A stretch of 59,179 bases of DNA, taken from IMG/VR virus record IMGVR_UViG_3300021560_000020, positions 1 to 59,179 of that record. One strand, given 5' to 3'. Under the pieces are notes generated by a model. The model was given only the letters and a program-made list of their open reading frames with translations, was not told the DNA's origin and did not search any database. Within the stretch, counting starts at the first letter, position 1. Each line of letters begins with the position of its first letter. Shown here one piece after another: positions 3,050 through 33,981 of the stretch. Origin of the DNA: a virus (Duplodnaviria > Caudoviricetes). A program made the position numbers and the translations under genes.

Positions 3050-4886
3050 TGGCCGACGTATATGATGCCTATGGGCGCCCCGTAGTTTTCGAGGCGCTAA
3101 AAGAACAGCAGGCCCAACCCACTCTCGTAGGCATCCGCAACATCTATTCGATCATCGACGACTCCATCGGCCTGACGCCGGAGAAGGTGGTCAACATCCT
3201 GCGCACCGCCGAGTACGGCGATCCGTGGCTGTATCTCGAACTGGCCGAGCGCATGGAGGAGAAGGATCAGCTCTATCAGGGCATTCTCCACACCCGCAAA
3301 ATGGCGGTCTCGCAACTGGAGATTGACGTGGCCTCGGCCGGGGATGACGAGCAGTCCACCGCCGACGCCGCGTTCGTGCGCGACATCATCATCAACTCCA
3401 ACCGCTGGGATATTCACGAAGTCGTCTACGAGATGCTGGACTCGCTCGGCAAGGGCTTTAGCTGCACCGAGATCATCTGGGATCTGGACGGCACCAATCT
3501 GGAGACCGGGGCGCCGGTCTGGTTGCCCTTCGAACTGAAATGGCGCGATCCGCGCTGGTTCATGTTCGACTGGATTTCCGGCGAGCAGCTGCTGGTCCGC
3601 AGCCTGCGCACCGACGGCCCGCAACTGCCGGTCGGGCGGGAGACCTGGGACTACCGGCTCAATCCGATGAACTTCCGGCTGCGCGCCGATAACGGCGTCC
3701 AGATCGGGATTCAGCCGGCCACTGAACCGCTGGCCCCGTTCAAGTTCATTACCCACATCACCCGCGCCAAGGCCGGTCTGCCGATTCGCGGAGGTCTGGC
3801 CCGCATCGCCATCTGGACCTACCTGTTCAAGAACTACGTACTGAAGGACTGGGTGGTGTTCGCCGAGGTCTACGGACAGCCGCTGCGCCTGGGCAAGTAC
3901 GGCGCGGGCGCGACCGAGAGCGACAAGAACGCGCTGCTCCGGGCGGTGGCCAATATCGGCACCGATGCCGCCGCCATCATCCCCTCCAGCATGGCCATCG
4001 AGTTCGTCGAGTCCAAGGGCGGCGGCCAGCGCTCGCACGAGATGTACGAGAAGTTCTGCGAATATCTGGACAAGCTCCTGACCATCGGCATTCTCGGCCA
4101 GGAACTCACCACGCAGCTGCCGCGCGGGGCCGGATCGCGGGCTGCCGCCGAGGTCCATGACGTGGTGCGCCGCGACATTGCGACCGACGATGCCCGCCGG
4201 GTGGCGGCTTCGCTCAACCGCGATCTGGTCAAGCCGCTCATCGATCTTAACCGCGGGCCGCGCCGCCGCTATCCCGAGATCACCATCGGCTACAAGGAGG
4301 AAACCGACCTGGTGGCACTGGCCGAGTCGATTGGGCCGTTCGTGGATCGCGGTATGCGGGTCGAGGACAAGTGGATTCGGGACAAGTTCAATATTCCTGA
4401 CCCCGCCCCGCAGGCCGTGCTGCTGCATCCCGCCGCCCGCATCAGCGAACAACAGACCGGCGGAAACGGCCCAGGAAGCTCGCTCGCCCCGCCGGATGAT
4501 GGATCACCCGTACCTCCCCCGAAACATCGCCTAGAATCGACCCCCGCGCCAGCCAGCGCTATTGCCGACAGCCCGCTTGGCCCCGCTTTCACGGATATAG
4601 ACGGAAAAAATACCCCGGCCTTGATGGCGGCCCGCAAAAAGACCGAGGACGCGGTGGAATGGTTCGCTGCCGCGCTGCTCGAAGATGAGGCGACCGCCGC
4701 GGCAATGGTCGAGCCGGTGCTCGAGCCGGTAAAAAAAAACTTGAAACGGCGCACTCCTACCACGAACTCAACGCGATGATCCCGCATTGCGCCGCGCTCA
4801 TCGACCTCAAGCCGTTTACCGAACTGGTGGCCCGCAGCAATTTCGTGGCGCACTTGAACGGCCGCCTCAGACGGCCGCTAAGATAG
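3049..4886 (+). CDS. Portal protein (Mu gp29 / DUF935 family); 0-frame stops at 4779, conserved C-terminus in the -1 frame to 4886
   Basis: MEEKD, KGFS..EIIW, W..FAEVYGQPLRLGKY, DAAAIIP..M.IEF, ILGQ.LT, AEVH.VR motifs; A9 run at 4731-4739. Confidence 0.92.
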
Positions 4887-4892
4887 ACGGCT

Positions 4893-5141
4893 ATGAACGT
4901 CAAGCAAAAAGCCATGCTCGATCTAATCTGGACGATGGTGGTTAGTGCGGTTGAGCGCTTCCCCGACCTCAACGTGATTCCCTTCGTCATGGTGACGGAG
5001 GCGCGGGGCCTGCATCTGCTCCAGCCGGACGATTTGCCGGACGGGATGAGGGTACGGGCGGTAGAGTGGGAGGACGGCACGCGCAATGAAGTTGAAAGCA
5101 TCAGCCGCAACCGGATTACGCTCAAGTCTCCGCAGACCTGA
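4893..5141 (+). CDS. Hypothetical protein (possibly the true 5' part of the next gene)
   Basis: ATG 7 nt after the extended portal stop; overlaps the next ORF. Confidence 0.45.
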   Translation: MNVKQKAMLDLIWTMVVSAVERFPDLNVIPFVMVTEARGLHLLQPDDLPDGMRVRAVEWEDGTRNEVESISRNRITLKSPQT

Positions 5142-6519
5142 AAACAAGGGCAATCCGTCCGCGATCGGGCCGACCCTCGACCTGACCGGAGGCAGTACCG
5201 AGTTCCGCCGTCGGGTGCGCGAAGCACTGGGCGAGCTGCGGCCCGTGGTCCTGCGCCTGCTCAAGGGCTGGACCATCTCGACGCTGGCCCGTTCGGAGGG
5301 CGACTGGTGCGGCCAGACCAATGCCGCCGAGCGGACCATCAAGCTGGCCGAGACCTGGCAGAGCGGCGAGCTTAACGTCAACGTCAATCAGGTGCTCCGC
5401 CACGAAGTCTGCCACGCCATCGAAGCACTCGTCATCGAACGTATCCCCCGCTGGTGGAAGGTCTGGACCCGCGCGTGGCGCATCGATACCGGCGAGCGTG
5501 AACTGGCCCTGCGCTCGTTCGGCTTCGACTATCTGCTCAAGAGCGAGGCGGAGGCGTTCGGCGAACTAGGCAGCTATCAAATCCGCCATCCGTCCGATCC
5601 CGACGACCGCCGCTATGATTTTCTCAGCCAGTTATTGCCGCGTCTGACGGTCATGCTGCGGACCTTGTTCGGGCAGTTGGAAATGACCTTCAAGCAGACG
5701 CTCGCCAGCCGCCAGCGCGCCTTGATGGCGGGCGCCACCGGCAGCAGTCCCGACGACTTTCTGTTCGAAGCCATCGAACCCCGGCAGGCGGTGGAGTTCT
5801 TCGAGCGCAAGGGCTACAGGCTTTCCTGGTCGTGGCGCGATACCTGGCAGGCCGAACACGCCCGCGCCTTTACCGTGGCTAAAATGATGGCGCTCGGCCT
5901 CTTAACCGATGTGCGCGAGCAGGTCCAGCGGGCGATCAAGGAAGGCATCGCCTTCGAGGATTTCCGCGACGCGCTTGAGCCGCTAATGAAAAGCGCGGGC
6001 TGGTGGGGCAGGCAGCCCATGACCGATCCCCTGACCGGCGAAACCAGGGAGGTGCAGCTCGGCAGCTATCCCCGCCTCGAACTCATCTACGACACCAATC
6101 TGCGCACTAGCTATGCCGCCGGCCAGTGGCAGGATATTCAGGAGGCCAAGGAGGAGTTACCCTTCCTACGCTATATCGATCCCGATCCCAATCCGCGCCC
6201 CGACCATTTGGACTGGAGCAACGCGCCGACCATCCTGCCGGTGGACGATGCGTGGTGGTCAACCCACTACCCGCCCAACGGCTTCAACTGCAAGTGCTAC
6301 GTGGACCAGATGGCGCCGACTGACCTGGAGGATCGCGGCTACACGCCGAGCGAGAGTGCGCCGCCCGGAGCGGCCGACGAGGGCTGGAACTACAATGTCG
6401 GCATGGCGGGAGTGGAGTATTCGACCGAACTGGCCTGGCACAAGACCATGACCAGTGCCGACTCCGATATTGTGCACGCGCTCAACCGGCTCGAACCGCC
6501 CAAACGGAGACGGCCATGA
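5086..6519 (+). CDS. MuF (Mu gp30 / SPP1 gp7-like) head morphogenesis protein with N-terminal HExxH domain
   Basis: AFTVAK, GWWG, RLELIYDTNLRTSYAAGQW, RPDH, WWSTHYPPNGFNCKC; upstream HEVCH...EAFGE. Start codon uncertain. Confidence 0.9.
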   Translation: MKLKASAATGLRSSLRRPENKGNPSAIGPTLDLTGGSTEFRRRVREALGELRPVVLRLLKGWTISTLARSEGDWCGQTNAAERTIKLAETWQSGELNVNVNQVLRHEVCHAIEALVIERIPRWWKVWTRAWRIDTGERELALRSFGFDYLLKSEAEAFGELGSYQIRHPSDPDDRRYDFLSQLLPRLTVMLRTLFGQLEMTFKQTLASRQRALMAGATGSSPDDFLFEAIEPRQAVEFFERKGYRLSWSWRDTWQAEHARAFTVAKMMALGLLTDVREQVQRAIKEGIAFEDFRDALEPLMKSAGWWGRQPMTDPLTGETREVQLGSYPRLELIYDTNLRTSYAAGQWQDIQEAKEELPFLRYIDPDPNPRPDHLDWSNAPTILPVDDAWWSTHYPPNGFNCKCYVDQMAPTDLEDRGYTPSESAPPGAADEGWNYNVGMAGVEYSTELAWHKTMTSADSDIVHALNRLEPPKRRRP

Positions 6520-9252: not shown

Positions 9253-9436
9253 CTTCTATCTCCTCACCTACTACGAGGTTGATTATATGATGAGTAACTA
9301 TACACATACCATTAGCTAGTTCAGTTAGTATCTCCGCCACGTCGTCGTGATCGTCACGGCGGCTGGCCAGCCGCACCATCCCGTTATAGACGTGCTGCAA
9401 TTCGCGGCGGGCTTCCTCAACGTCGGATCGTTTCAT
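9242..9436 (-). CDS. Hypothetical protein
   Basis: AAAGGAGAT RBS; in operon. Confidence 0.6.
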   Translation of the reverse strand: MKRSDVEEARRELQHVYNGMVRLASRRDDHDDVAEILTELANGMCIVTHHIINLVVGEEIEDGK

Positions 9437-23751: not shown

Positions 23752-23931
23752 CTAGCGTTTGCGTAGACTGCGCCGGAAGTACCTCCAGGCTTCCGGCCAT
23801 TTCTGCCAGCGGGGTTCGAAGCCGCCCCGCTCCAGCCACTCGCGCAGGTCTTTGGCCGCGCTCCGGGCGCTTTCGTGATCGTGCCGCCGGAGTGCCTCCG
23901 CGATGAGCCTAGCCGTCGCGTCTGGGTCCAT
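23752..23931 (-). CDS. Small hypothetical protein (MDPDAT...WLERGGFEP.W), not in the ORF track
   Basis: GGGAG RBS; 59-aa open frame filling the operon gap. Confidence 0.6.
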   Translation of the reverse strand: MDPDATARLIAEALRRHDHESARSAAKDLREWLERGGFEPRWQKWPEAWRYFRRSLRKR

Positions 23932-24094
23932 CGGCCTGCTCCCTACGCCGGATGATCTGGTTAATCTCCTCCTTGGCCTCCCGCAGGGAGTAGCGCGCGG
24001 TGATGAAGCGGACTCCCTCGTAGATGTTAAAATACAGCACGCCGCGAAACTGCTGGCGGCGCACCCGGAAGCCGCGATAGTCGTGTTCCATCAT
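23909..24094 (-). CDS. Hypothetical protein
   Basis: AAGGAGATAA RBS directly after twister A. Confidence 0.65.
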   Translation of the reverse strand: MMEHDYRGFRVRRQQFRGVLYFNIYEGVRFITARYSLREAKEEINQIIRRREQADGPRRDG

Positions 24095-24105
24095 TATCTC
24101 CTTGT

Positions 24106-24186
24106 GTGCAGCACGCGGGCTTGGAGTTTTCCGCGTGGCGCATTACACCGGGGCATGACCGCCCCGGCCTCCTCTGCAAGCCGCAC
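24106..24186 (-). ncRNA. Twister-like ribozyme, P5-type permutation (copy A)
   Basis: GUGCGGC-UU-GCA-GA-GGAG-[P1 hairpin]-G-U^AA-UGC-GC-C-ACGCGG-AAAA-CUCC-AAGC-CCGCGU-GCUGCAC. Confidence 0.85.
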
Positions 24187-24894
24187 TTAGGGTTGTCGGT
24201 AACCGGCAAGCTGTTCGAGCCGGTCGAGCCATGAGGTATCTGGATCAACCTGGTCGGTTACGTAGTGGCAGCTCCACAGGCCCGACTGCCTGACCTTGGC
24301 CTGATGACTGAAATGGCCGAGCCAGTTGGCACTCGGCGGGTCGATCGCGGTCCGGCCTTGACGATGATAGTTCGACAGCAGCGCCGTACCCTTGCGCTCG
24401 GCTTCGTCGAGGAAGTCCGTATCAGGCACGGCGATCCAGGCGAAATCGAGCTGGGTAAGGGTGTAGGAATACACCGGACCGCGCTCGAAGGCGCGCATCA
24501 ACTGCTCCAGTCCGGCATGCTTGGGATCGCCGGGAATGGCCGAGAAGTTCAGATTGAGATACTTGTTCACGTCCAGTCCGGGCCGCTTGAGCTGGCGCCG
24601 GATAGCCCCTTGCAGATCGTCGCGCAACGCCAGGGCGGTATAGATATACGAGGCAAAAATCGAGCCCTGAGAGACGGCTTGCCGGTGCTGCGTCGGACGG
24701 CTCAGGCCCGCCTTGCGGGACAATCCCATGCGCACGATGCGTCGGCTTAGATCGGCCCGCTGTTCGCCGCGCTCCCAAAAGAAGTACAGGACCTGAGGGC
24801 CGGGTATCATGTTGGGATGCTGTCCGGCATAGTCGGCAATCGCGTGCAGCCGGTCGATCATTGCCGTAAGCTGTGAGAGAGTTACGGGGTTCAT
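24187..24894 (-). CDS. Putative GIY-YIG-like nuclease
   Basis: LYFF.E.GE.R...RIVR.G...QH...GSIF pattern; weak assignment. Confidence 0.45.
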   Translation of the reverse strand: MNPVTLSQLTAMIDRLHAIADYAGQHPNMIPGPQVLYFFWERGEQRADLSRRIVRMGLSRKAGLSRPTQHRQAVSQGSIFASYIYTALALRDDLQGAIRRQLKRPGLDVNKYLNLNFSAIPGDPKHAGLEQLMRAFERGPVYSYTLTQLDFAWIAVPDTDFLDEAERKGTALLSNYHRQGRTAIDPPSANWLGHFSHQAKVRQSGLWSCHYVTDQVDPDTSWLDRLEQLAGYRQP

Positions 24895-24977
24895 AATCGG
24901 AGCCTCCTGAGTTCCGGTTGTGAGAGCGAGGCCGCCCCAGGGTTAACCGCCGCGGACGGCCTCGTGGAGTTAAAGGA

Positions 24978-26057
24978 TTAGGCCGCCTCGGCGATCTTCC
25001 TCCACTCGCCCTGCGGCAATTCCACGATCTGGCCCCCGGCCCGTTGCAGGTCGGTGCCGGTTTCGTAATCCACCTCCTCCGAATTGGCCACTGCCGTGAC
25101 CGCGTTCATCAGCCCGTAGCGGCTCAGGTCGCCGCCCTCGATCAGATTCTTGAGGATCGACTTGCCGATCTCGTCCGAGAACGAGAAGCGCTCCTGCACC
25201 GCTTCGATCACCGCGCCGATGTCGCTCGACTCGATCTTCTGCTCCGCCGCCTCTGCCATCTTGGTCACCTGGGCCACGAACAAGTCCTTGTCCCAGGCCG
25301 CCCGCACCACGTCCCGCACCTTGAGCCACAGCGCCTTGTCATCGGCCTTGCGCGACTCGTCCGACAAGACCGCGCGTACCTCCGTCTCCAGCTCCGCAAT
25401 GCGCCCGACGTGGTAGCGCTTCATCGCGGTCGGCGCGATCGCCCCGTTGAGGCAGACCAGCCGGAAGGTCATCGGCTCGATCCGCAGCGCTCCCGCGCCG
25501 ACCTCCGAGTTGCTGATCACCAGACCGGCCTGCACCACATCCCCCACCTGCCGCGAGCCGGGCACGGTCATTTCAAGCGCGTCCAGCACCGCCTTGATGT
25601 ACAGGCGCTGCTCGGTCAGTTCCGCGCTTACTACTTTGGCGCCGCGCCGCATCAATTCCGGCAGCACCACCTCCGCCAGGTCGTGGTTGTCGAGCGGCCG
25701 GTAGCGGTCACTCAGGAACGCGCGTGCGGTGCCGTCCAGCGTGCGTACCATGCGCCTAGTTTTGGGTTCCCGCTGTAGCCACTCATTGACGTTAGTGGCG
25801 AGCAGCTGCGGGGCTTCCTTGAGCATGCGCTCGTAGTAGCGGCTCGGAATCCCCACATGGTCGCCCAACTGGCCGTGGGCATGGCGGTTGAGGTCGAAGG
25901 TGCCGGTATTGGCCAGATGGAGCTGAACCGGACTCGTCGTGTCCGGCTCGTTCGCGACCAGCGCCAGCCGTCCGACCGGGGCCAGATAGTCCTTGCGGGT
26001 CTCCAGTTGCCGCTCCAACTCGGTCGCCAACTGGATAAGGGTTTTACCCTGTTGCAT
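24978..26057 (-). CDS. DUF932/DUF945-like phage protein
   Basis: H.QL....IP..YY, RAFLSDRY..LDN, ISNSEVG.G, RLVCLNG, H.G, YGL.NAVT. Confidence 0.8.
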   Translation of the reverse strand: MQQGKTLIQLATELERQLETRKDYLAPVGRLALVANEPDTTSPVQLHLANTGTFDLNRHAHGQLGDHVGIPSRYYERMLKEAPQLLATNVNEWLQREPKTRRMVRTLDGTARAFLSDRYRPLDNHDLAEVVLPELMRRGAKVVSAELTEQRLYIKAVLDALEMTVPGSRQVGDVVQAGLVISNSEVGAGALRIEPMTFRLVCLNGAIAPTAMKRYHVGRIAELETEVRAVLSDESRKADDKALWLKVRDVVRAAWDKDLFVAQVTKMAEAAEQKIESSDIGAVIEAVQERFSFSDEIGKSILKNLIEGGDLSRYGLMNAVTAVANSEEVDYETGTDLQRAGGQIVELPQGEWRKIAEAA

Positions 26058-26073
26058 CTACTTATCTCCCTAC

Positions 26074-26149
26074 GCAGCGACCGGGCTTAGGGTTGCCGGT
26101 CCGCGCGTTCTACAGGACCGTTGCCGGTCCTGCCCCTTCCGCGAACTGC
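26074..26149 (-). ncRNA. Twister-like ribozyme, P5-type (copy B)
   Basis: GCAGU-UC-GCG-GA-AGGG-G-[CAGGACCG GCAA CGGUCCUG]-UA-G^AA-CGC-GC-G-GACCGG-CAA-CCCU-AAGC-CCGGUC-GCUGC. Confidence 0.8.
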
Positions 26150-26426
26150 TAGGAGAGCTTGCGGGTATCCACTGCTGCTGCCCTTTCCGTTTCGAGCAAG
26201 TGACGGCCTTCGAAGAGCAAACGAAGCCAGGCTCCGGTATTGGTAAGGCTTACCGAATGGCTAAGGTTGCTGCCGGCCTTGAGTGCCCCCGATCGACCGA
26301 TGAAGTAGAAGCGTCCTCCTGCCGCTTAATCCGGCGATAGTCCTGGTAGGGGCTGTCAATTTCCTTGTGCCCCCGCGCAAGCAGTGCCCGCACCAGCGCG
26401 TCCGCAATCGTGAAAGTCTTTGCCAT
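26149..26426 (-). pseudogene. Hypothetical gene with apparent frameshift near 26320
   Basis: MAKTFTIADALVRALLARGHKEI... continues in another frame as GRFYFIGRSGALKAG...RKLS*, with TAG abutting twister B. Confidence 0.55.
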
Positions 26427-26448
26427 CGTCGTTACCTCCAAGGTTACT

Positions 26449-26484
26449 ATAATACTCAAGCGCTTTGCTTATAGCTATAGTCAA
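26449..26484 (-). promoter_or_regulatory. Promoter-like element containing AAGCGCTT
   Basis: TTGACT...TATTAT with a 24-bp spacer; aligns to the 30713-30741 promoter with 7 extra bp. Confidence 0.45.
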
Positions 26485-26509
26485 TCGCGATCGGTTGCGT
26501 GCCACTACC

Positions 26510-27139
26510 CTACTGGCTGGCGCGGGCGGTCGCCTCCTCTGCAAGTGCCACGACATTAGGCCCGACTTGCCGCACCCGCGCGGCAGACTCCTCCAGGAGA
26601 CCCGTATCTGAATGGTCGATGCCGCTGGCGAACTCATCAGCCGCGGTGTCCAGCGAAGCTAGCTGAGCCAGCCAGCGGTCGTTCCACTCGGACCAGCCTG
26701 CGGGCGGTTGCAGCTTCTGCGCGTCGGTATAAGTTGCCTTCCACATGGCAAGTTCCAGCGCGACCTCTGCCTGCCAGTTCCGGTCCTGCGGAAGCGGCGA
26801 CCGGCAAAGATCTGCCATCCTGCCCAGGCTCGCGCCCAAAGCTCCGGCCTCCTCATGGACCTGCCCGAAATACGCACTCCCCGCGTTATCCGTCTGCGCC
26901 GCTACCGCTACGGTGGCGGAAGCCGCGGGCGCACTGGCAGTGGAGTTATTGCTTGAGGGTGAATCCAGGCAACTGCCCAGGCTCGCGGCCAGCACCCCGG
27001 CGCCGAGCAGGGTCCACAGCACGCGCCTGCGGGTTTTCCTTGGCCCCGCGTAGCGCGTGCCGCACTTGCTGCAAAAGCTGGCATTGGCCGATAGCTGATT
27101 GGCGCACTGCGCGCATCGCCGCGTCGTAATGGTTTCCAT
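26510..27139 (-). CDS. Zn-ribbon plus TM plus helical-bundle membrane protein
   Basis: CAQC...FCSKCG, basic patch, hydrophobic helix. Confidence 0.7.
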   Translation of the reverse strand: METITTRRCAQCANQLSANASFCSKCGTRYAGPRKTRRRVLWTLLGAGVLAASLGSCLDSPSSNNSTASAPAASATVAVAAQTDNAGSAYFGQVHEEAGALGASLGRMADLCRSPLPQDRNWQAEVALELAMWKATYTDAQKLQPPAGWSEWNDRWLAQLASLDTAADEFASGIDHSDTGLLEESAARVRQVGPNVVALAEEATARASQ

Positions 27140-27264
27140 CTGATTACTCCCTTGCGGTTAAGACCGGCGATGGTGATCGCCGGTACGTTTACGGGGCAGA
27201 TGCCGTCGGGTCACCTGCCTTGCAGACCTAATTCAGCGCTGGCATTGATCGCACAGGCAGACCG

Positions 27265-27441
27265 TCAATCAATCCGGGTCAAGCGCACCGTTGGGGGGCA
27301 GCCGTTCTCCGCGCAATCCCGGCAGACTCGCATGATAATTTTCCGGTCATTCTCAGGCGCGATGCCGTCAAAGACCTCGGATTGCCAGTACTCGGCTTCG
27401 TATTCTGCCTGGGCATCACAGGTGCCATATTCACAATTCAT
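27265..27441 (-). CDS. Small Cys-rich protein (MNCEYGTC...VCRDC), not in the ORF track
   Basis: AGGAGG RBS; 58-aa frame. Confidence 0.6.
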   Translation of the reverse strand: MNCEYGTCDAQAEYEAEYWQSEVFDGIAPENDRKIIMRVCRDCAENGCPPTVRLTRID

Positions 27442-27453
27442 CCGTAGTTCCTC

Positions 27454-27648
27454 CTAGCCGATTACCATGAAGCCGGCATGCGCCACCGCCGCCAGCTGGC
27501 CGTCGAGGGTCGAGGCGTTGAAGATCGCGGTGTACCTGCCCTTGGTGGTGCAGACCACCACGTACCTGAAGCTGGCCGGAAACTGCGCCAGGGCCTTGAG
27601 CAGGCCCGTCCGCGTGGCGAAGGACCGGCACTTGTCGATGTCCATCAT
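27454..27648 (-). CDS. Hypothetical protein
   Basis: AAGGAGATAA RBS after twister C. Confidence 0.65.
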   Translation of the reverse strand: MMDIDKCRSFATRTGLLKALAQFPASFRYVVVCTTKGRYTAIFNASTLDGQLAAVAHAGFMVIG

Positions 27649-27663
27649 CTACTTATCTCCTTG

Positions 27664-27741
27664 ACCGCGCCGGGGCTTGAAGTTTCCCGGCCGCGTGTTC
27701 TATCGGGGGAGCGAACTCCCCCGACCTTCTCCACGAGCTGT
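27664..27741 (-). ncRNA. Twister-like ribozyme, P5-type (copy C)
   Basis: ACAGC-UC-GUG-GA-GAAG-G-[UCGGGGGAG UUCG CUCCCCCGA]-UA-G^AA-CAC-GC-G-GCCGGG-AAA-CUUC-AAGC-CCCGGC-GCGGU. Confidence 0.8.
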
Positions 27742-28766
27742 TAGCGAAGCCGCTTCCGCTCGGCCCCGGTATCGATCTGCTCATCCAAGCCGATGCTATT
27801 GCCGCTCGCCCGTCCGTCCCGATAGGCCGGATGGTTGCGCCGTTCCTCATCCCGTTCCCACTCCCGCTTCCGGCGCGCCTCATCGCGCTCGCGCTCCCGT
27901 TCCTCGCGCGCCTCCTCCTTGGCCTGCTGCTTCGCGGTCTTGGCTTTCGGCGGCGGCGGGATCGCCAGGCCCCGCGCCACGTAGTAGGCGCTGTGCTCAC
28001 TCATGCCGCCCGCGATAAGCTCCTGCTCGCGCTGGCGCAGCGCCTCGCGCCGGGCCTTATCCTGAGCCTCGTAGGCCGCCCACTGTGCGGCCCGTTCGCG
28101 GCGCTGACGGGCGGTGGTACCCGGCTCCCGGCCGTTGAGCGCGTCCTGGTTCAAGTCCTCCTCGCTGCCGTACACGTCGCTCAGCACCATCAACTCCGTG
28201 CCGGTGCCGTTGCCCTGCGCCTGCGCGGCCCGTCGGCTTTCCAGTTCCTGCTCGATGCGCCGCTGGTTGAGCCGCTCAATCAGCCGGTCGGCGCAACCGT
28301 CACACCATTTGGTATGCGAAACCTGCTCGCGCCGGGGATGGTACGGATTCAACCGCTGCATGGCTTGCAGCAGATAGTTATAGGTCTGGATGGTGACCAC
28401 CACGTTGACCTTGCGGCCTAATAGCTGATGGCCGCCGAATTTGCGGTAGTGGCCGGTATTGATGATGAAGTGCAGGCAGAAATTGTTGTCCGCCAGACAC
28501 GCCATCAGGCGGCGTTTCCATTTGTGACCGGCACCGCCGCCGTCCGTCATTTCCCGCGGTTCAGCCGCTGCCGCCGCGGGTTCAGCCTGTTCGAGCGCGG
28601 CTAGCGTTAGGTTATGCGCGGCCAGAATTTCCTGTATCTTGGTCGCCGCCACCAGCGCTTCATTCTCGGAGCACCCGTTCTCGGTAGTCATCCGAAGCAG
28701 GCGCTCGATCTTGCCCAATACCGCCGCCTGTTCGGCGGCTTCGGTCGTCGTCGTCATCTTGATCAT
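27741..28766 (-). CDS. DUF2786-domain protein
   Basis: KI..LL......ENEA..A..K.Q..L..HNL N-terminus; Y..G...G..I.L..Q C-terminus; true start may be 28757. Confidence 0.8.
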   Translation of the reverse strand: MIKMTTTTEAAEQAAVLGKIERLLRMTTENGCSENEALVAATKIQEILAAHNLTLAALEQAEPAAAAAEPREMTDGGGAGHKWKRRLMACLADNNFCLHFIINTGHYRKFGGHQLLGRKVNVVVTIQTYNYLLQAMQRLNPYHPRREQVSHTKWCDGCADRLIERLNQRRIEQELESRRAAQAQGNGTGTELMVLSDVYGSEEDLNQDALNGREPGTTARQRRERAAQWAAYEAQDKARREALRQREQELIAGGMSEHSAYYVARGLAIPPPPKAKTAKQQAKEEAREERERERDEARRKREWERDEERRNHPAYRDGRASGNSIGLDEQIDTGAERKRLR

Positions 28767-28774
28767 CTCCCCGT

Positions 28775-28853
28775 ATAGCGACCGGGCTTAGGGTTTCCGG
28801 TCCGCGCGTTCTGGCGGAGCCAGTGATGGCCCCGCCCCCCTTCCGTAGGCTGC
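28775..28853 (-). ncRNA. Twister-like ribozyme, P5-type (copy D)
   Basis: GCAGC-CU-ACG-GA-AGGG-G-[GGCGGGGCCA UCAC UGGCUCCGCC]-A-G^AA-CGC-GC-G-GACCGG-AAA-CCCU-AAGC-CCGGUC-GCUAU; one P2 mismatch. Confidence 0.72.
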
Positions 28854-28860
28854 GGGCGCT

Positions 28861-29034
28861 TTAGAACAAACGCCGGGCACGTCTGACGAAATCCGCGATG
28901 GTCTTGTGCGAGCGGACGATGCCCGCGGCCTCGACCAACGCGATGATAGTGGCAGTGTCCCGGTGCAGATTGCCGAACACGATCGCACGTACCCGAGCGG
29001 CTTCCTCTAACCGATTGAGCCGAATCTGTTTCAT
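28861..29034 (-). CDS. Small hypothetical protein (MKQIRLNRLEE..., 57 aa), not in the ORF track
   Basis: GGGAGAT RBS; fills the gap between twisters E and D. Confidence 0.65.
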   Translation of the reverse strand: MKQIRLNRLEEAARVRAIVFGNLHRDTATIIALVEAAGIVRSHKTIADFVRRARRLF

Positions 29035-29056
29035 CTTGCTATCTCCCTGTGATTGG

Positions 29057-29132
29057 AACGGTGTCCGGGCTTGGCTGCCGGACAGCGCATTACGTCCGCC
29101 CCGGCAGGGACGGACGGCCTCTGCGAACCGTT
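29057..29132 (-). ncRNA. Twister-like ribozyme, P5-type (copy E)
   Basis: AACGGU-UC-GCA-GA-GGC-[CGUCCGUCCC UGCC GGGGCGGACG]-U^AA-UGC-GC-U-GUCCGG-CA-GCC-AAGC-CCGGAC-ACCGUU. Confidence 0.82.
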
Positions 29133-30129
29133 AGGCTTTAAGCGCGCCGAGTTCGGCCAGGATGCTGAGCAGGTGTGATACTTCATAGATTACGAAGTGA
29201 AATGACTTGGCCGAGATGTCCAAGCCCTGCGCCTGCACTTTCTGGTAGAGCGCCGCTTCATCAACCGGATGTTTGTCGTCCGCTTTCAATACGGCTTCAA
29301 CCGCGATCTTGCGTACCGCACGGCCCGCTGACTTGCCGTTGGCCGAGGCCGGTTTGGCTGCCTTGGCCTTTTTCTCGACCACCTTTACCTTGGGATGCTT
29401 TTCCTTGATGTGCTTCATCATTTCTTCCTCAGTCGCAAATTCCAGCTTGCAGGGCTGGCAGATACTAACCGTGGGGACTTCCGGCAGCTCGATCTGCTCG
29501 CCCTTCTCCATCGCTTCCGCCAGACTCATCATGGTCGGCTTCGCGCGCTTGGCAGCTAGCACCCGGTCGAGCTCTGCGCCGATCTTGTCATGGCTTTCCT
29601 TCTGCGCCTTGCGGTTGGCGCTGGCCACGCTCACCGCCTCCTCCACCGAAGGCTTGCAGGCGTAGCAGAAGCAGGCCGGGTCATGCGGCGCGGCAGTCGT
29701 CGGCGTGCCGCCGAGGTCGGTCAGAACTGCTATCGTAGCCGCCACTGCCGCCTTGCTCGGCTGCTTCTCCTTGACCGGCTTGACCACCTTCGCCGCCGCT
29801 ACCGTCCGTTCCACGATCTCGGCCTTCAGGCCGCCGCCGAGTTCCACGATCTCCGCCTTGCGGGCCGCGGGCTTGAGAGTGAGTTGTTCGTTGGTTATGG
29901 TTGCTTCCATCTTCATCTCCTGTCGGTTGATTTCAGCCATCATCCGTTCGTAATGGCGGGGAGCCAGAAAATTGTGCAGCGGCGCGCTGGCGTCGGCCAG
30001 CGTCCGGTATTCAAGGTCGAACCAGCCGTTCCAGTCGCCGCGCCCGTGCTGTTCAAGGTAGCCGCGAATCGTGTCGCGGTGCCGCTCAGTGAATTTGACG
30101 GTCGAAAGACCGACCTGGGTGGTTGCCAT
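29131..30129 (-). CDS. Ala/Lys-rich protein with C2H2-like Zn finger
   Basis: AAGGAGAT RBS; CQPC..EF...M.KH...H; HDPACFCYAC; possible internal start at 29910. Confidence 0.7.
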   Translation of the reverse strand: MATTQVGLSTVKFTERHRDTIRGYLEQHGRGDWNGWFDLEYRTLADASAPLHNFLAPRHYERMMAEINRQEMKMEATITNEQLTLKPAARKAEIVELGGGLKAEIVERTVAAAKVVKPVKEKQPSKAAVAATIAVLTDLGGTPTTAAPHDPACFCYACKPSVEEAVSVASANRKAQKESHDKIGAELDRVLAAKRAKPTMMSLAEAMEKGEQIELPEVPTVSICQPCKLEFATEEEMMKHIKEKHPKVKVVEKKAKAAKPASANGKSAGRAVRKIAVEAVLKADDKHPVDEAALYQKVQAQGLDISAKSFHFVIYEVSHLLSILAELGALKA

Positions 30130-30151
30130 CGTCGTCTATCTCCTTGTTCAA

Positions 30152-30230
30152 AACGGCGGCCGGGCTTGGAGTTTCCGGCCTGCGTTTTACCATGCACTAT
30201 CCAATAGTGCATGCTCCTCAACTAACCGTT
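30152..30230 (-). ncRNA. Twister-like ribozyme, P5-type (copy F)
   Basis: AACGGU-UA-GUU-GA-GGAG-[CAUGCACUAU UGG AUAGUGCAUG]-G-U^AA-AAC-GC-A-GGCCGG-AAA-CUCC-AAGC-CCGGCC-GCCGUU. Confidence 0.85.
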
Positions 30231-30396
30231 ATTGATTGCGCCGGAAGTCGACGATCGCCTGCTCGTAAATCTCCTCGTAATCATCGGCCTCCTGATTAAG
30301 TGAGCGCGAGTAGCAACCCGCGCGGCGAAAGGCGGCAATCGATTCAATTGCCACCCGGTACCACTCCGGAGTTTCCGGGGCTGAGATTCGATACAT
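30229..30396 (-). CDS. Small hypothetical protein (MYRISAPE...)
   Basis: AAAGGA RBS after the hammerhead; stop overlaps twister F. Confidence 0.6.
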   Translation of the reverse strand: MYRISAPETPEWYRVAIESIAAFRRAGCYSRSLNQEADDYEEIYEQAIVDFRRNQ

Positions 30397-30412
30397 GGAT
30401 GATTCCTTTGAA

Positions 30413-30472
30413 TTTCCGTTTCGGCCTTCAATTCGGCCATCATCGGCAGGGCTAGATTTCCCTGGACGGAAA
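30413..30472 (-). ncRNA. Hammerhead ribozyme, type III (core variant)
   Basis: UUUCCG-UC^-CAGGG AAAUCUAG CCCUG-CCGAUGA-U-GGCC GAAUUGAA GGCC-GAAA-CGGAAA; three stems intact, U4->C. Confidence 0.8.
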
Positions 30473-30712
30473 ACGGATTCGACGCACATGCCGCAGTCCA
30501 CGATCCCCGGAAGCTATGCCGGAGCAGGAACGGGGTGCCTCGTCTATCCGTGTTTTTGGCCCAACTACCTTTACCGCTTAGGGAGCCTCAAGCGCTCAGA
30601 AGATGTCCGTTGCCGGAGATTGCTTTCCTTGCCGCGCCTAGCCTGAGTTATCGCTTAACCGTTGGTGCTGTTTTCCGTCCTCTCCTTTTTGTTACCGTGT
30701 GCTGACAGTATG

Positions 30713-30741
30713 AATATAACCAAGCGCTTAGCTTTAGTCCA
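30713..30741 (-). promoter_or_regulatory. Sigma70-type promoter of the leftward early operon, with AAGCGCTT palindrome in the spacer
   Basis: TGGACT-17 bp-TATATT; upstream A-tracts resembling an UP element. Confidence 0.7.
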
Positions 30742-32539: not shown

Positions 32540-33053
32540 TTAGTTTCTGCGGATCGTAGGGACCGAATAAGGTCCGCTCAATGGTCTCCTCGCTGATTAG
32601 TTTGAGCATACCTGGCGGCTGCGCGTTATAGGTGCCGCCGACCGGAGCCATTTCCGTGCCGAGCAGACGGGCCCGAAACTCCTCCCACTTAAGCACCCCC
32701 AGCAACGCCCGAATCCGCACGTTCTGGTCGCCCGGGATCTGCCTGGGCGGCTGATTTGGCCGCTCGCTCGGCTCAGTGTGCGGCTGCGCCTGACGCTCGA
32801 TGGACCACAGATGGGAGACCGCGAGGTCAATCGCCTCCAGCGCTTTCTTGCGTTCCTGATGGACTACCGGCTCGGTAATCCGGCCCAGCTCACGCTGGTA
32901 AATCTGCCGGATACGGACCTCGCTGACTCCGTACTGGCGGCTGATCGCTCCCCAGTGCACACCCCGATAGCGCAGCTCGAGAATTTCCCGCGCCCGCCGC
33001 CGGGCCTCGATTACCCCCGCCGGCTTCTCCCCGCCCCTAGCGCGTCCCGGCAT
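32391..33053 (-). CDS. Putative terminase small subunit (HTH)
   Basis: LELR..G..W..I...YGVS HTH and RARLLG motif; directly upstream of terL, with a long 3' overlap. Confidence 0.6.
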   Translation of the reverse strand: MPGRARGGEKPAGVIEARRRAREILELRYRGVHWGAISRQYGVSEVRIRQIYQRELGRITEPVVHQERKKALEAIDLAVSHLWSIERQAQPHTEPSERPNQPPRQIPGDQNVRIRALLGVLKWEEFRARLLGTEMAPVGGTYNAQPPGMLKLISEETIERTLFGPYDPQKLSEQVDAATIISRKVGAGPDADQGIREEPADRDNLGGSGGFSKDGGPRSR

Positions 33054-33981
33054 GATTTCTCCTCGCTCGCTCGCGTTCCAATAGTTCACGCATCTCTGCA
33101 TGCTGAATCCGGGGCTTGACCTGGATCGGCACCAGTCCGTAATCATCAATCCCGTCAGCCGGCTGAAGCCCCGGCCTTAATTTCAACGGCCGATAAAACC
33201 TGGTCCAGTCCACCACATGCTGCGGTCGGTGGAAGCGCCGGCCCACGGTCACCACCCCCGGCCACTGCCGCTCCAGCGAGCGTGCCATCTTTAACCGCCC
33301 GTCACCGGCATAAAGCTGGTCCGTATTGCCGCCCTTGAGCTGCATCGTCGCGACCTTATAGATCATAAAGACGTTGACCATGATGGTGTAGAAGCCCGCG
33401 GCCAGAACCTGCAAGCACAGGTCGGTGTCCTCGTTATAGCGGCCCCGCCAGCGGAACGGCAGCCGGTTCAGGATCAGCATGCAGGAATAAACCCGATGAT
33501 TGACTGTGAATGGCGCATACGACTTGTTATCGGTAATAAACATCTGGTAGTTGAGGCCGCTAATCGCCACGTCCTCGTAGCGCTCGGTAAAATCCTCGGT
33601 CGCCCGCAATGCATTGCCGGCATTACAGACTACCCGTACTCCATGCGAGCGATAGCGGAAATCCCGAATGTTGTCATCGAGGATCCAGTGCCGTTCATGG
33701 CCCGCCCTGGCGGCATGTTCCCAGACCCAGTTGCGGGCCGGAATCGAACCCTGGCCCAGGTCGTGAAACGGCAGCACCAGCAGCTTCTCGGCCCCGAAGC
33801 GCCAGCCGTAAGCCTCGGCCTCCGGCGGCTCCACCACCAGCCGGAACGGCACCCGGTCCTGCATCAGACAGCGCGCCGTCGAAGAGCAGGCTGGAATATC
33901 CCACCGCCCCTTGCTGATTACATAGACCGGATAACGCGGCAGAATCCGTCCGCGGCTGCCGGACTTACTTGGCTCCGCCAT
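33037..33981 (-). CDS. GREB1/TAGT-like GT-A glycosyltransferase (candidate DNA base modification)
   Basis: YPVYVISKGR, VVEP.E...Y, ARN..WEHA, HWILDDNI, YSC.LI, WRGRYNEDTDL.LQVL, GGNT. Confidence 0.75.
   Translation of the reverse strand: MAEPSKSGSRGRILPRYPVYVISKGRWDIPACSSTARCLMQDRVPFRLVVEPPEAEAYGWRFGAEKLLVLPFHDLGQGSIPARNWVWEHAARAGHERHWILDDNIRDFRYRSHGVRVVCNAGNALRATEDFTERYEDVAISGLNYQMFITDNKSYAPFTVNHRVYSCMLILNRLPFRWRGRYNEDTDLCLQVLAAGFYTIMVNVFMIYKVATMQLKGGNTDQLYAGDGRLKMARSLERQWPGVVTVGRRFHRPQHVVDWTRFYRPLKLRPGLQPADGIDDYGLVPIQVKPRIQHAEMRELLERERARRNHAGTR

Follow-up and report, generated by a model that had tools for sequence, protein, structure and literature searches.

How might a phage divide a long messenger RNA into gene-sized units without the help of a protein? 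The question is raised by a gene block on the minus strand of the DNA analysed here (the window), which is the complete IMG/VR virus record IMGVR_UViG_3300021560_000020 of 59,179 base pairs (bp), with a completeness estimate of 98%. The record is that of a tailed phage, for which the portal, large terminase, head protease, tail sheath, tape measure and primase genes were identified, and the phage DNA is present in soil metagenome sequencing runs. Read along its strand, the block starts near 30.7 kb, ends near 23.9 kb and comprises the genes that we call g1 to g11. Six intergenic look-alike elements of 74-79 nucleotides (nt), all on the minus strand, lie in it between positions 24108 and 30229 and are called F, E, D, B, C and A in their order along that strand. 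We hold it to be probable, with good confidence, that they are type-P5 twister self-cleaving ribozymes in the minus-strand mRNA and that they cut the transcript or transcripts into hairpin-capped units. The twister class was reportedly described by Roth et al. in 2014.

Six elements share the twister plan

The six elements and a nested structure drawn by hand were the basis of a covariance model, R1. Run with filters off over the whole window, it returned exactly six copies at 72-92.8 bits, scores that arise by construction. The model includes flanks and is tuned to these six. A seventh copy is absent from the 59-kb window, where the next-best R1 match has 15.7 bits (E 0.069). In a MAFFT alignment the six copies have a mean column identity of 62% and 20 invariant columns.

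Twisters are described in PMC5408937 as having essential helices P1, P2 and P4, an optional P5 with the termini and a double pseudoknot (T1 and T2), with conserved GA, AA, GC and AAGC in the loops L1 and L4 and a cut 5' of a conserved A that follows a variable base. A common type-P5 plan is found in all six elements: P5, P2, GA, T1', the P1 hairpin, N^AA (the caret marks the predicted cut), P2', GC, P4 with an AAGC loop, and P5'. The ten core nucleotides (GA, AA, GC and AAGC) are invariant in all copies, and those of copies A and E align to upper-case consensus positions of the Rfam type-P5 twister family, RF02684.

The copies differ in their helices. Twister F (30153-30229) has its predicted cut at U30189^A30188, with P2 formed by GUU/AAC and T1 by GGAG/CUCC. 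Twister E (29058-29131) would be cut at U29092^A29091 and has P2 GCA/UGC and T1 GGC/GCC. In twister D (28775-28853; predicted cut G28811^A28810) P2 contains an A.C mismatch, P5 is mismatched at one pair and T1' is followed by an additional G; this copy has the lowest R1 score (72 bits) and its activity may be impaired. Twister B (27664-27741; predicted cut G27700^A27699) has P2 GUG/CAC and T1 GAAG/CUUC, and twister C (26074-26149; predicted cut G26110^A26109) has P2 GCG/CGC and T1 AGGG/CCCU. Both are also carried by L263, a 1,945-bp metagenome contig of the same phage that is 99.64% identical to 25849-27789 and in which the copy of B is identical. Twister A (24108-24184) has P2 GCA/UGC and T1 GGAG/CUCC, and its predicted cut, U24145^A24144, is the one named in an earlier model-made reading of the bare sequence (the sequence-only reading), with which the alignment agrees. 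Contigs from four soil-metagenome DNA runs, two of which may be the source of the record, show no variation inside the twisters.

Covariation was tested on the model-fitted alignment of six rows, using a drawing that adds the pseudoknots T1 and T2; the nested helices were thus fitted by R1 and the two pseudoknots lie outside it. Standard pairs fill 97.7% of the 172 pair cells, compared with 75.2 +/- 2.1% in shuffles, and a shift of the 3' partners by 1-3 columns leaves only 31.6-41.6% of the cells paired. Changes on both sides are seen at 21 of the 29 pairs, the shuffle mean being 9.4 and none of 500 shuffles reaching 21, although these shuffle statistics overstate independence, the six paralogues being non-independent samples. 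Compensatory pairs are distributed over all the helices concerned (P1 9/9, P4 4/6, P5 3/5, P2 2/3, T1 3/4), and cells are paired at 100% in P1 and in P4 and at 94.4% in P2. T1, which joins L4 with the strand 5' of P1, is paired in 95.5% of its cells and occurs in the variants GGAG/CUCC, GAAG/CUUC and AGGG/CCCU. Both pairs of T2, between the GC after P2 and the GC of AAGC, can form in all six copies and are invariant, so that covariation is mute on them. The twister core, fold, covarying helices and pseudoknot that the sequence-only reading had picked out in six elements are therefore upheld by the comparison.

A descriptor was also drawn, independently of R1, from the general twister plan (P2', GA, T1', P1 hairpin, N AA, P2, GC, and a P4 loop ending in T1 and AAGC). 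It matches five of the six copies, D being missed through the A.C mismatch in P2, and has only two further matches in about 3.3 Mb of other fetched DNA, one of them a clean type-P1 twister in locus L044. When each element is simply folded by minimum free energy (MFE), without comparative input, P5-P2-P1-P4 is recovered in four copies and P1 with P4 in all six.

Rfam scores and the case against catalysis

Several observations weigh against a reading as active twisters. An Rfam search of the whole window at gathering score reached no family. When small pieces were searched under relaxed settings, Twister-P5 (RF02684, cut-off 37.6) gave end-to-end alignments with copy E (29.5 bits, E 6.9e-4) and copy A (26.4 bits), and copies F, D, B and C were unreported at E <= 10. 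P2 is only 3 bp long, copy D is mismatched in both P2 and P5, and the base before the predicted cut, a U in F, E and A, is a G in D, B and C, at a position that is called non-conserved in PMC5408937. To these points is added the non-independence of the paralogues. Between g1 and g11 a twister is present at six of the ten junctions and missing from four, so that the regular alternation of genes and ribozymes seen earlier holds for the six junctions and fails at the four. The sequencing runs matched to the phage DNA are soil metagenome DNA only, with no RNA run among them. Finally, R1, a narrow probe, found no second array over 80 DUF932 viral loci (g9 encodes a DUF932 protein), 69 terminase loci and 80 genome loci. 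Its sole match in these 229 loci, in a DUF932 viral locus (L037, 27.2 bits), is weak and not a clean twister, with none in the terminase and genome loci, and conservation of the array across phages can therefore not be claimed.

On such grounds the elements could be taken for non-catalytic structured repeats or decayed twisters, serving as recognition hairpins for a protein or RNase III or as mRNA stabilisers. The sub-threshold Rfam scores, the short P2 and the mismatches of copy D would fit, and some ribozymes predicted bioinformatically do not cleave (PMC8782182). A mere hairpin repeat would however not retain ten invariant core nucleotides alongside compensatory change in every helix, including a 4-bp pseudoknot. 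Moreover, Rfam under-scores canonical phage hammerheads as well: two type III hammerheads with a textbook core (in loci L045 and L067) reach 40 bits against a cut-off of 48.5. Of the other descriptor matches in the four loci searched, four were unreported at E <= 1, namely the two type I hammerheads of L039, a second type III in L067 and an element in L060 with a C for U at core position 4 (U4C). The sub-threshold twister scores thus count as weak contrary evidence, and we consider the non-catalytic explanation quite improbable.

Compared with RF02684, the phage elements share the stems, T1, the core and the predicted cut position, as far as that family is described in the sources used, and T2 could be formed in each copy. 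They differ in having a P2 of 3 bp (4 in the Rfam consensus), a T1 of 4 pairs, a P1 of 8-10 bp and, in three copies, a G before the cut, and in scoring 26-30 bits or going unreported. The low scores result from the missing fourth pair of P2 and from insertions in P1 and L4. The Rfam comparison that the sequence-only reading had proposed hence gave a divided answer, with nothing at gathering score and no hammerhead match on the one hand and sub-threshold Twister-P5 matches to E and A on the other. By every sequence-level criterion tested except the Rfam score, the six elements are of the twister class. As Rfam gathering cut-offs miss phage ribozyme candidates with a full core and fold, such arrays are probably under-counted in viromes.

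The elements lie between stop codon and Shine-Dalgarno sequence

All six twisters are intergenic, lie on the coding strand and start 0-8 nt past a stop codon. In F, E, B and C that codon and P5 share one base, the last of the codon and the first of the helix. Copy A has a gap of 3 nt, which would close if P5 were extended by two pairs, and copy D has one of 8 nt. On the other side, the 3' strand of P5 ends 8-23 nt ahead of the annotated AUG, and each P5-to-AUG spacer contains a Shine-Dalgarno sequence of the form GGAGAU(A/G), which is unseen at the junctions lacking a twister. The positioning between a stop codon and the next ribosome-binding site, as first noticed in the letters, is confirmed by these distances.

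The placement of copy C carries a caveat: the stop codon ahead of it is that of g8, a gene with a frameshift in the window and without one in L263. This contig has 4 extra bases near 26311/26312, which yield a g8 open reading frame (ORF) of 92 amino acids (aa) ending at TAG 26151-26149, on the first base of twister C. The insertion is also present in one contig of run X3, and runs X1, X2 and X4 show the shorter form; the length difference is either a population polymorphism or a recurrent assembly difference.

The close fit between stop codon and P5 can also be read as a sign that the cut is conditional. A terminating ribosome would melt P5, P2 and T1', and translation of the upstream gene would then gate cleavage or product release and so set the relative amounts of the mRNAs. 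The shared base in four of the six copies, and the distance of at most 8 nt in all of them, are what this model would lead one to expect; among related loci, hammerheads likewise start 0-7 nt from a stop codon in L081 and L087 and extend into the end of the DUF932 match in L039, and P5, P2 and T1, with 12 bp in all, would be the sole link between the two cleavage products. Tight packing may, however, merely reflect genome economy, and cleavage may precede the arrival of the first ribosome, given that published cleavage rates of twisters in vitro are fast. We regard translation-gated cutting as unlikely, and it is equally doubtful that the overlap of stop codon and P5 is functional in the sense that termination unwinds P5, P2 and T1', gates folding and drives product release. 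If this were true, ribosome gating and capped ends would together amount to a protein-free setting of the stoichiometry and lifetime of each cistron.

Predicted products of cleavage

If the six elements are self-cleaving twisters, as we favour, each would fold once transcribed and cut itself at N^AA, roughly 40-50 nt past the preceding stop codon. The upstream product would keep its stop codon, with a 3' untranslated region (UTR) of 42-53 nt behind it, and would terminate in the P1 hairpin of 8-10 bp and a 2',3'-cyclic phosphate. Its downstream counterpart would start with a 5'-hydroxyl (5'-OH), followed by AA, the 3' strand of P2, GC, the P4 hairpin, the 3' strand of P5, a free GGAGAU and the AUG. 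The transcript or transcripts would in this way be divided, without protein, into mono- or oligocistronic units with hairpin-capped ends, and protein-free cutting of polycistronic mRNA into such units is the most likely function that we can propose from the sequence. In MFE folds of the predicted 3' products, the Shine-Dalgarno sequence is unpaired in six of six and the 5' end lies in a stem extending P4 in five of six. Folding of the predicted fragments thus recovers the 3' P1 hairpin and the 5' P4 hairpin that had been expected for the products.

5'-terminal stem-loops and a 5'-OH slow the 5'-end-dependent decay by RNases E and J, and a hairpin or cyclic phosphate at the 3' end does the same to 3' exonucleases and polyadenylation. 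From these effects we infer an influence of the cut ends on stability or translation, and the stabilisation and uncoupling of each cistron would be a reasonable consequence. The role of bacterial and phage twisters and hammerheads is called still 'largely elusive' in PMC6765202. The 6.4-kb block provides a compact natural test bed in this respect, with six paralogous twisters that have varied helices and one core and with ribozyme-free junctions alongside, and is suited to asking whether cleavage stabilises, insulates or rebalances cistrons.

The predicted ends bear on the further fate of the segments. RtcB uses 5'-OH and 2',3'-cyclic phosphate ends, so that segments might be rejoined into circular or spliced RNAs by an RtcB-type ligase, or else by the reverse reaction on hybrid twisters, for which non-cognate halves could form 7-11 of the 12 inter-fragment pairs (11 when the 5' part of C meets the 3' part of D). 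Nothing in the block indicates ligation, however, and a search for spliced or circular products of clustered hammerheads, as related in PMC3088659, found none; we consider rejoining highly improbable. The idea that distinct P2, T1 and P5 sequences act as orthogonal address codes that block cross-pairing is unsupported, with 7-11 of 12 pairs in non-cognate halves compared with 9-12 in cognate ones.

A hammerhead-like element precedes the first gene

The 5' UTR of g1, the first gene, contains a hammerhead-like element of type III (30413-30472, minus strand) with a predicted cut at 30465^30464. It consists of a stem III of 7 bp, C17, a stem I hairpin of 5 bp, a stem II hairpin of 4 bp and GAAA, stems I and II being closed and stem III open. 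The three-way junction appears in its MFE fold (-26.7 kcal/mol, z -2.44). The core has GAAA and C17 and is otherwise non-consensus, with CCGAUGA (U4C) against CUGANGA and one extra U between A9 and stem II, and the element (30472-30413) has no Rfam hammerhead match at E <= 10. Of the hammerhead claimed in the sequence-only reading, the three-way junction is therefore present, and the C at position 4, the extra U before stem II and the silence of Rfam speak against it.

A hammerhead descriptor covering all three types was scanned over 160 DUF932 loci (2.07 Mb) and reversed-sequence decoys. It gave 12 matches in the loci and 2 in the decoys, both with a relaxed core, a rate at which about 0.06 chance matches are expected per window; 30472-30413 is the only match in the window. 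One may suppose that this element is a chance or degenerate form which does not cleave and that the g1 leader stays intact or is cut by host RNases. The substitution at core position 4, the inserted base, the lack of an Rfam match and the fact that relaxed-core matches do turn up in reversed decoys are consistent with that, and U4C 'considerably' decreases hammerhead activity in vitro (PMC3088659). Yet a viroid hammerhead with U4C suffices in vivo, and U4C and core insertions are known natural variants, according to the same source. A U4C hammerhead also lies immediately before a Shine-Dalgarno sequence and AUG in L060, the same 1-nt insertion is seen in four hammerheads with a canonical core (one in L087 and three in L242), and the element, the sole match in the window, is correctly oriented, lies in the g1 5' UTR and has stems of 5, 4 and 7 bp. 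We regard it as a plausible hammerhead variant; the odds that it is active are roughly even, and a non-cleaving element falls just short of an even chance.

The leader between a promoter-like site and the predicted cut (30466-30705, minus strand, about 240 nt) contains no ORF with a Shine-Dalgarno sequence and has no Rfam match. The hammerhead-like element would trim it from the g1 transcript, and if the cut occurs the leader would be freed as a separate RNA.

Promoter motifs and junctions without a twister

The promoter-like site (30713-30741, minus strand) consists of TGGACT, a spacer of 17 nt and TATATT, with 9 of 12 matches, and holds the sequence AAGCGCTTGNNTATNNT at 30729-30713. Promoter-like sites number 2 in the region against 1.9 expected, which is not significant alone. 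AAGCGCTTGNNTATNNT has exactly two copies in the genome, both on this strand and in this block and each upstream of a gene run; the second exact copy is at 26449-26465, upstream of g8. Allowing for up to 2 mismatches, there are 5 matches compared with 0.94 expected, a number reached in none of 100 shuffles. The copies of AAGCGCTTGNNTATNNT may represent a phage promoter or operator. The palindrome AAGCGCTT is found inside AAGCGCTTGNNTATNNT.

As the second copy of AAGCGCTTGNNTATNNT (26465-26449) falls in the junction between g7 and g8, the block is probably made of two transcription units rather than one. The single transcript from 30713-30741 that had been assumed in the sequence-only reading is thus disfavoured, both by this second copy and by a first site that does not rise above chance alone.

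The junctions devoid of a twister are of several kinds. That between g5 and g6 is a gap of 12 nt with no element. Between g6 and g7 there is a structured intergenic region of 125 nt (27140-27264, minus strand; MFE -45.3, z -1.76) with a GC-rich hairpin of 9 bp in it; Rfam gave no match to the region at E <= 10, and nhmmer over 3.3 Mb of fetched loci gave no homologue except in L263. Between g9 and g10 a long hairpin without a U tract is found at 24927-24964 on the minus strand (region MFE -34.0, z -2.37). The structured junctions at 27264-27140 and 24964-24927 may hold processing elements of undescribed classes. Other known ribozyme classes were considered for the remaining junctions (L009, L010, L011) and rejected, there being no Rfam match at E <= 10 and no nhmmer homologue in the 3.3 Mb.

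Ribozymes at related loci

No close relative of the phage was found, including by a search of viral contigs with g9 only, and blastn of the block against isolate phages gave 2 records that cover 3% of the query. Searches with parts of the elements returned little. The 19-nt L4/P4 motif occurs in 20 loci of viral contigs where, by our own estimate, about 14 are expected by chance; R1 has 5 weak matches there, which renders this search uninformative, and an Rfam gathering search of the 20 loci reported only a tRNA. A longer pattern found 3 loci in metagenome contigs, of which only L263 is related. In the 10 closest DUF932 loci the Rfam gathering search reported nothing, though the hammerhead descriptor finds two type I hammerheads in L039, which is one of the ten. 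A loose twister descriptor allowing P3 had 18 matches compared with 5 in reversed decoys, and most of its long-linker matches are noise; we relied on compact twister matches only, namely those of L044, L182, L263 and the window.

The hammerhead descriptor shows elements of types I, II or III at the edges of DUF932 genes, or in tandem, in contigs of both viral and bacterial origin. In L045 (7925-7975) and L067 (7927-7975, with a further match at 3689-3737), the DUF932 start lies about 26 nt beyond the end of a canonical type III hammerhead. Others start 0-7 nt after the DUF932 stop codon in L081 (9099-9171) and L087 (2919-2975), and in L039 (7276-7330 and 9077-9132) the end of the DUF932 match is overlapped; the U4C element of L060 is at 9285-9338. 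In all, a hammerhead-like match on the strand of the gene and within about 250 nt of a DUF932 gene is present at 6 of the 160 loci. L242 carries three tandem type I hammerheads on the minus strand (4995-5901), which are the three copies with the 1-nt insertion before stem II. As for twisters, a type-P1 copy is followed by a Shine-Dalgarno sequence in L044, and so is a consensus-like type-P5 copy in L182, a metagenome-assembled genome of Acidobacteria. The twister scan covered 252 loci and the hammerhead scan 229 of these, and ribozyme matches number at most 3 per locus, as against six and one here.

The presence of different ribozyme classes at the same position between stop codon and ribosome-binding site argues that the cut, rather than one particular fold, is under selection. 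The alternation of genes and ribozymes that might have been expected in related phages is hence not repeated as a second array detectable by R1, and recurs as the same placement with hammerheads or other twisters.

A side observation was made in run X1, where a 151-nt contig of low depth from a diverged relative matches window positions 28757-29057. It has the 3' part of a twister and a Shine-Dalgarno sequence fused to the start of g4, without g3 and twister D. This could reflect the gain or loss of a gene-plus-ribozyme cassette, or a misplaced 26-nt side, and the contig is too thin to use.

Comparison with known arrangements

Perreault et al. (2011) described clustered hammerheads on the coding strand that flank single genes or short blocks in prophages, and suggested a role for them in processing long phage transcripts to mRNAs the length of an operon or a gene (PMC3088659). 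When constructs of about 2 kb were transcribed in vitro, three clustered arrangements cut themselves as predicted, and the triple hammerhead of A. tumefaciens, cloned in E. coli, also cleaved in vivo (PMC3088659). The prophage clusters resemble the block in having several ribozymes close together, on the coding strand and around single genes. They differ in the repeated class and the number: here the twister is repeated, with six copies and one hammerhead-like element, whereas triple hammerheads are described there where a copy number is given. Weinberg et al. (2015), as summarised in PMC5737381 and PMC6765202, found that twister, hammerhead and other classes lie a few kb or less from one another and from particular genes, many of them phage-like; the hammerhead-like matches at DUF932 loci reported above are analogous to such neighbourhoods. 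For twisters as well as hammerheads, a part in processing polycistronic transcripts has been suggested (PMC6765202, PMC5408937, PMC8782182, PMC5737381).

The suggestion that the block is a novel system must consequently be given up, as ribozyme clusters of prophages, with a proposed role in cutting long phage transcripts, were described in 2011 (PMC3088659) and the co-location of twisters and hammerheads has been reviewed (PMC6765202, PMC5408937). By analogy with these descriptions, the putative array of the phage is an unusually dense case of an arrangement known from prophages. No six-twister array was found in a full-text literature search, whose scope did not extend to supplements (the Perreault figures and the Weinberg gene-class lists).

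A parallel exists among engineered parts. In RiboJ-type insulators and in cleavage by Csy4, an element placed between the upstream context and the ribosome-binding site gives a cistron a defined 5' end and independence of context. In contrast to these, the phage array is natural and twister-based and would also leave a hairpin on the upstream product.

Gene content of the block

The large terminase gene is on the same strand and immediately precedes the block, and the label of early genes that the block had been given is not supported. All its genes are on the minus strand. No family was found for g1 (30229-30396, 55 aa) or g3 (28861-29034, 57 aa), and g2 (29131-30129, 332 aa) has no Pfam or PHROG family; a possible C2H2 zinc finger in it is a weak lead only. 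The product of g4 (27741-28766) contains DUF2786 and DUF7168 (PF23771 E 1.8e-8, PF10979 E 8.8e-7, phrog_421), and its second AUG, at 28757, is more likely to be the start than the annotated one. Small proteins are encoded by g5 (27648-27454, 64 aa) and g6 (27441-27265, 58 aa), and g7 (26510-27139, 209 aa) has an N-terminal zinc ribbon (PF13240 E 1.1e-5). g8 extends over 26149-26426 and is frameshifted near 26312. Like g1 and g3, the genes g5, g6, g8 and g11 have no family match.

g9 (24978-26057, 359 aa) encodes the DUF932 protein (PF06067 E 5.7e-9, phrog_1362 E 2e-58). Homologues of this family are abundant, with 4,839 proteins at E <= 1e-10 among 8,000 candidates scored, and are spread over many phyla; the best non-self homologue of g9 has 61% identity. 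g10 (24187-24894, 235 aa) has no Pfam match and resembles GIY-YIG_3 nuclease-domain proteins of the ESM Atlas (feature score 0.95, template-modelling (TM) score 0.78), a resemblance that is a lead only, from a language model and structure. g11 (23909-24091, 60 aa) is the gene downstream of twister A.

Outside the block, a TET-associated glycosyltransferase is encoded on the minus strand at 33037-33981 (PF20691 E 2.3e-42, also phrog_842), and the phage probably glycosylates hydroxymethylated bases in its own DNA.

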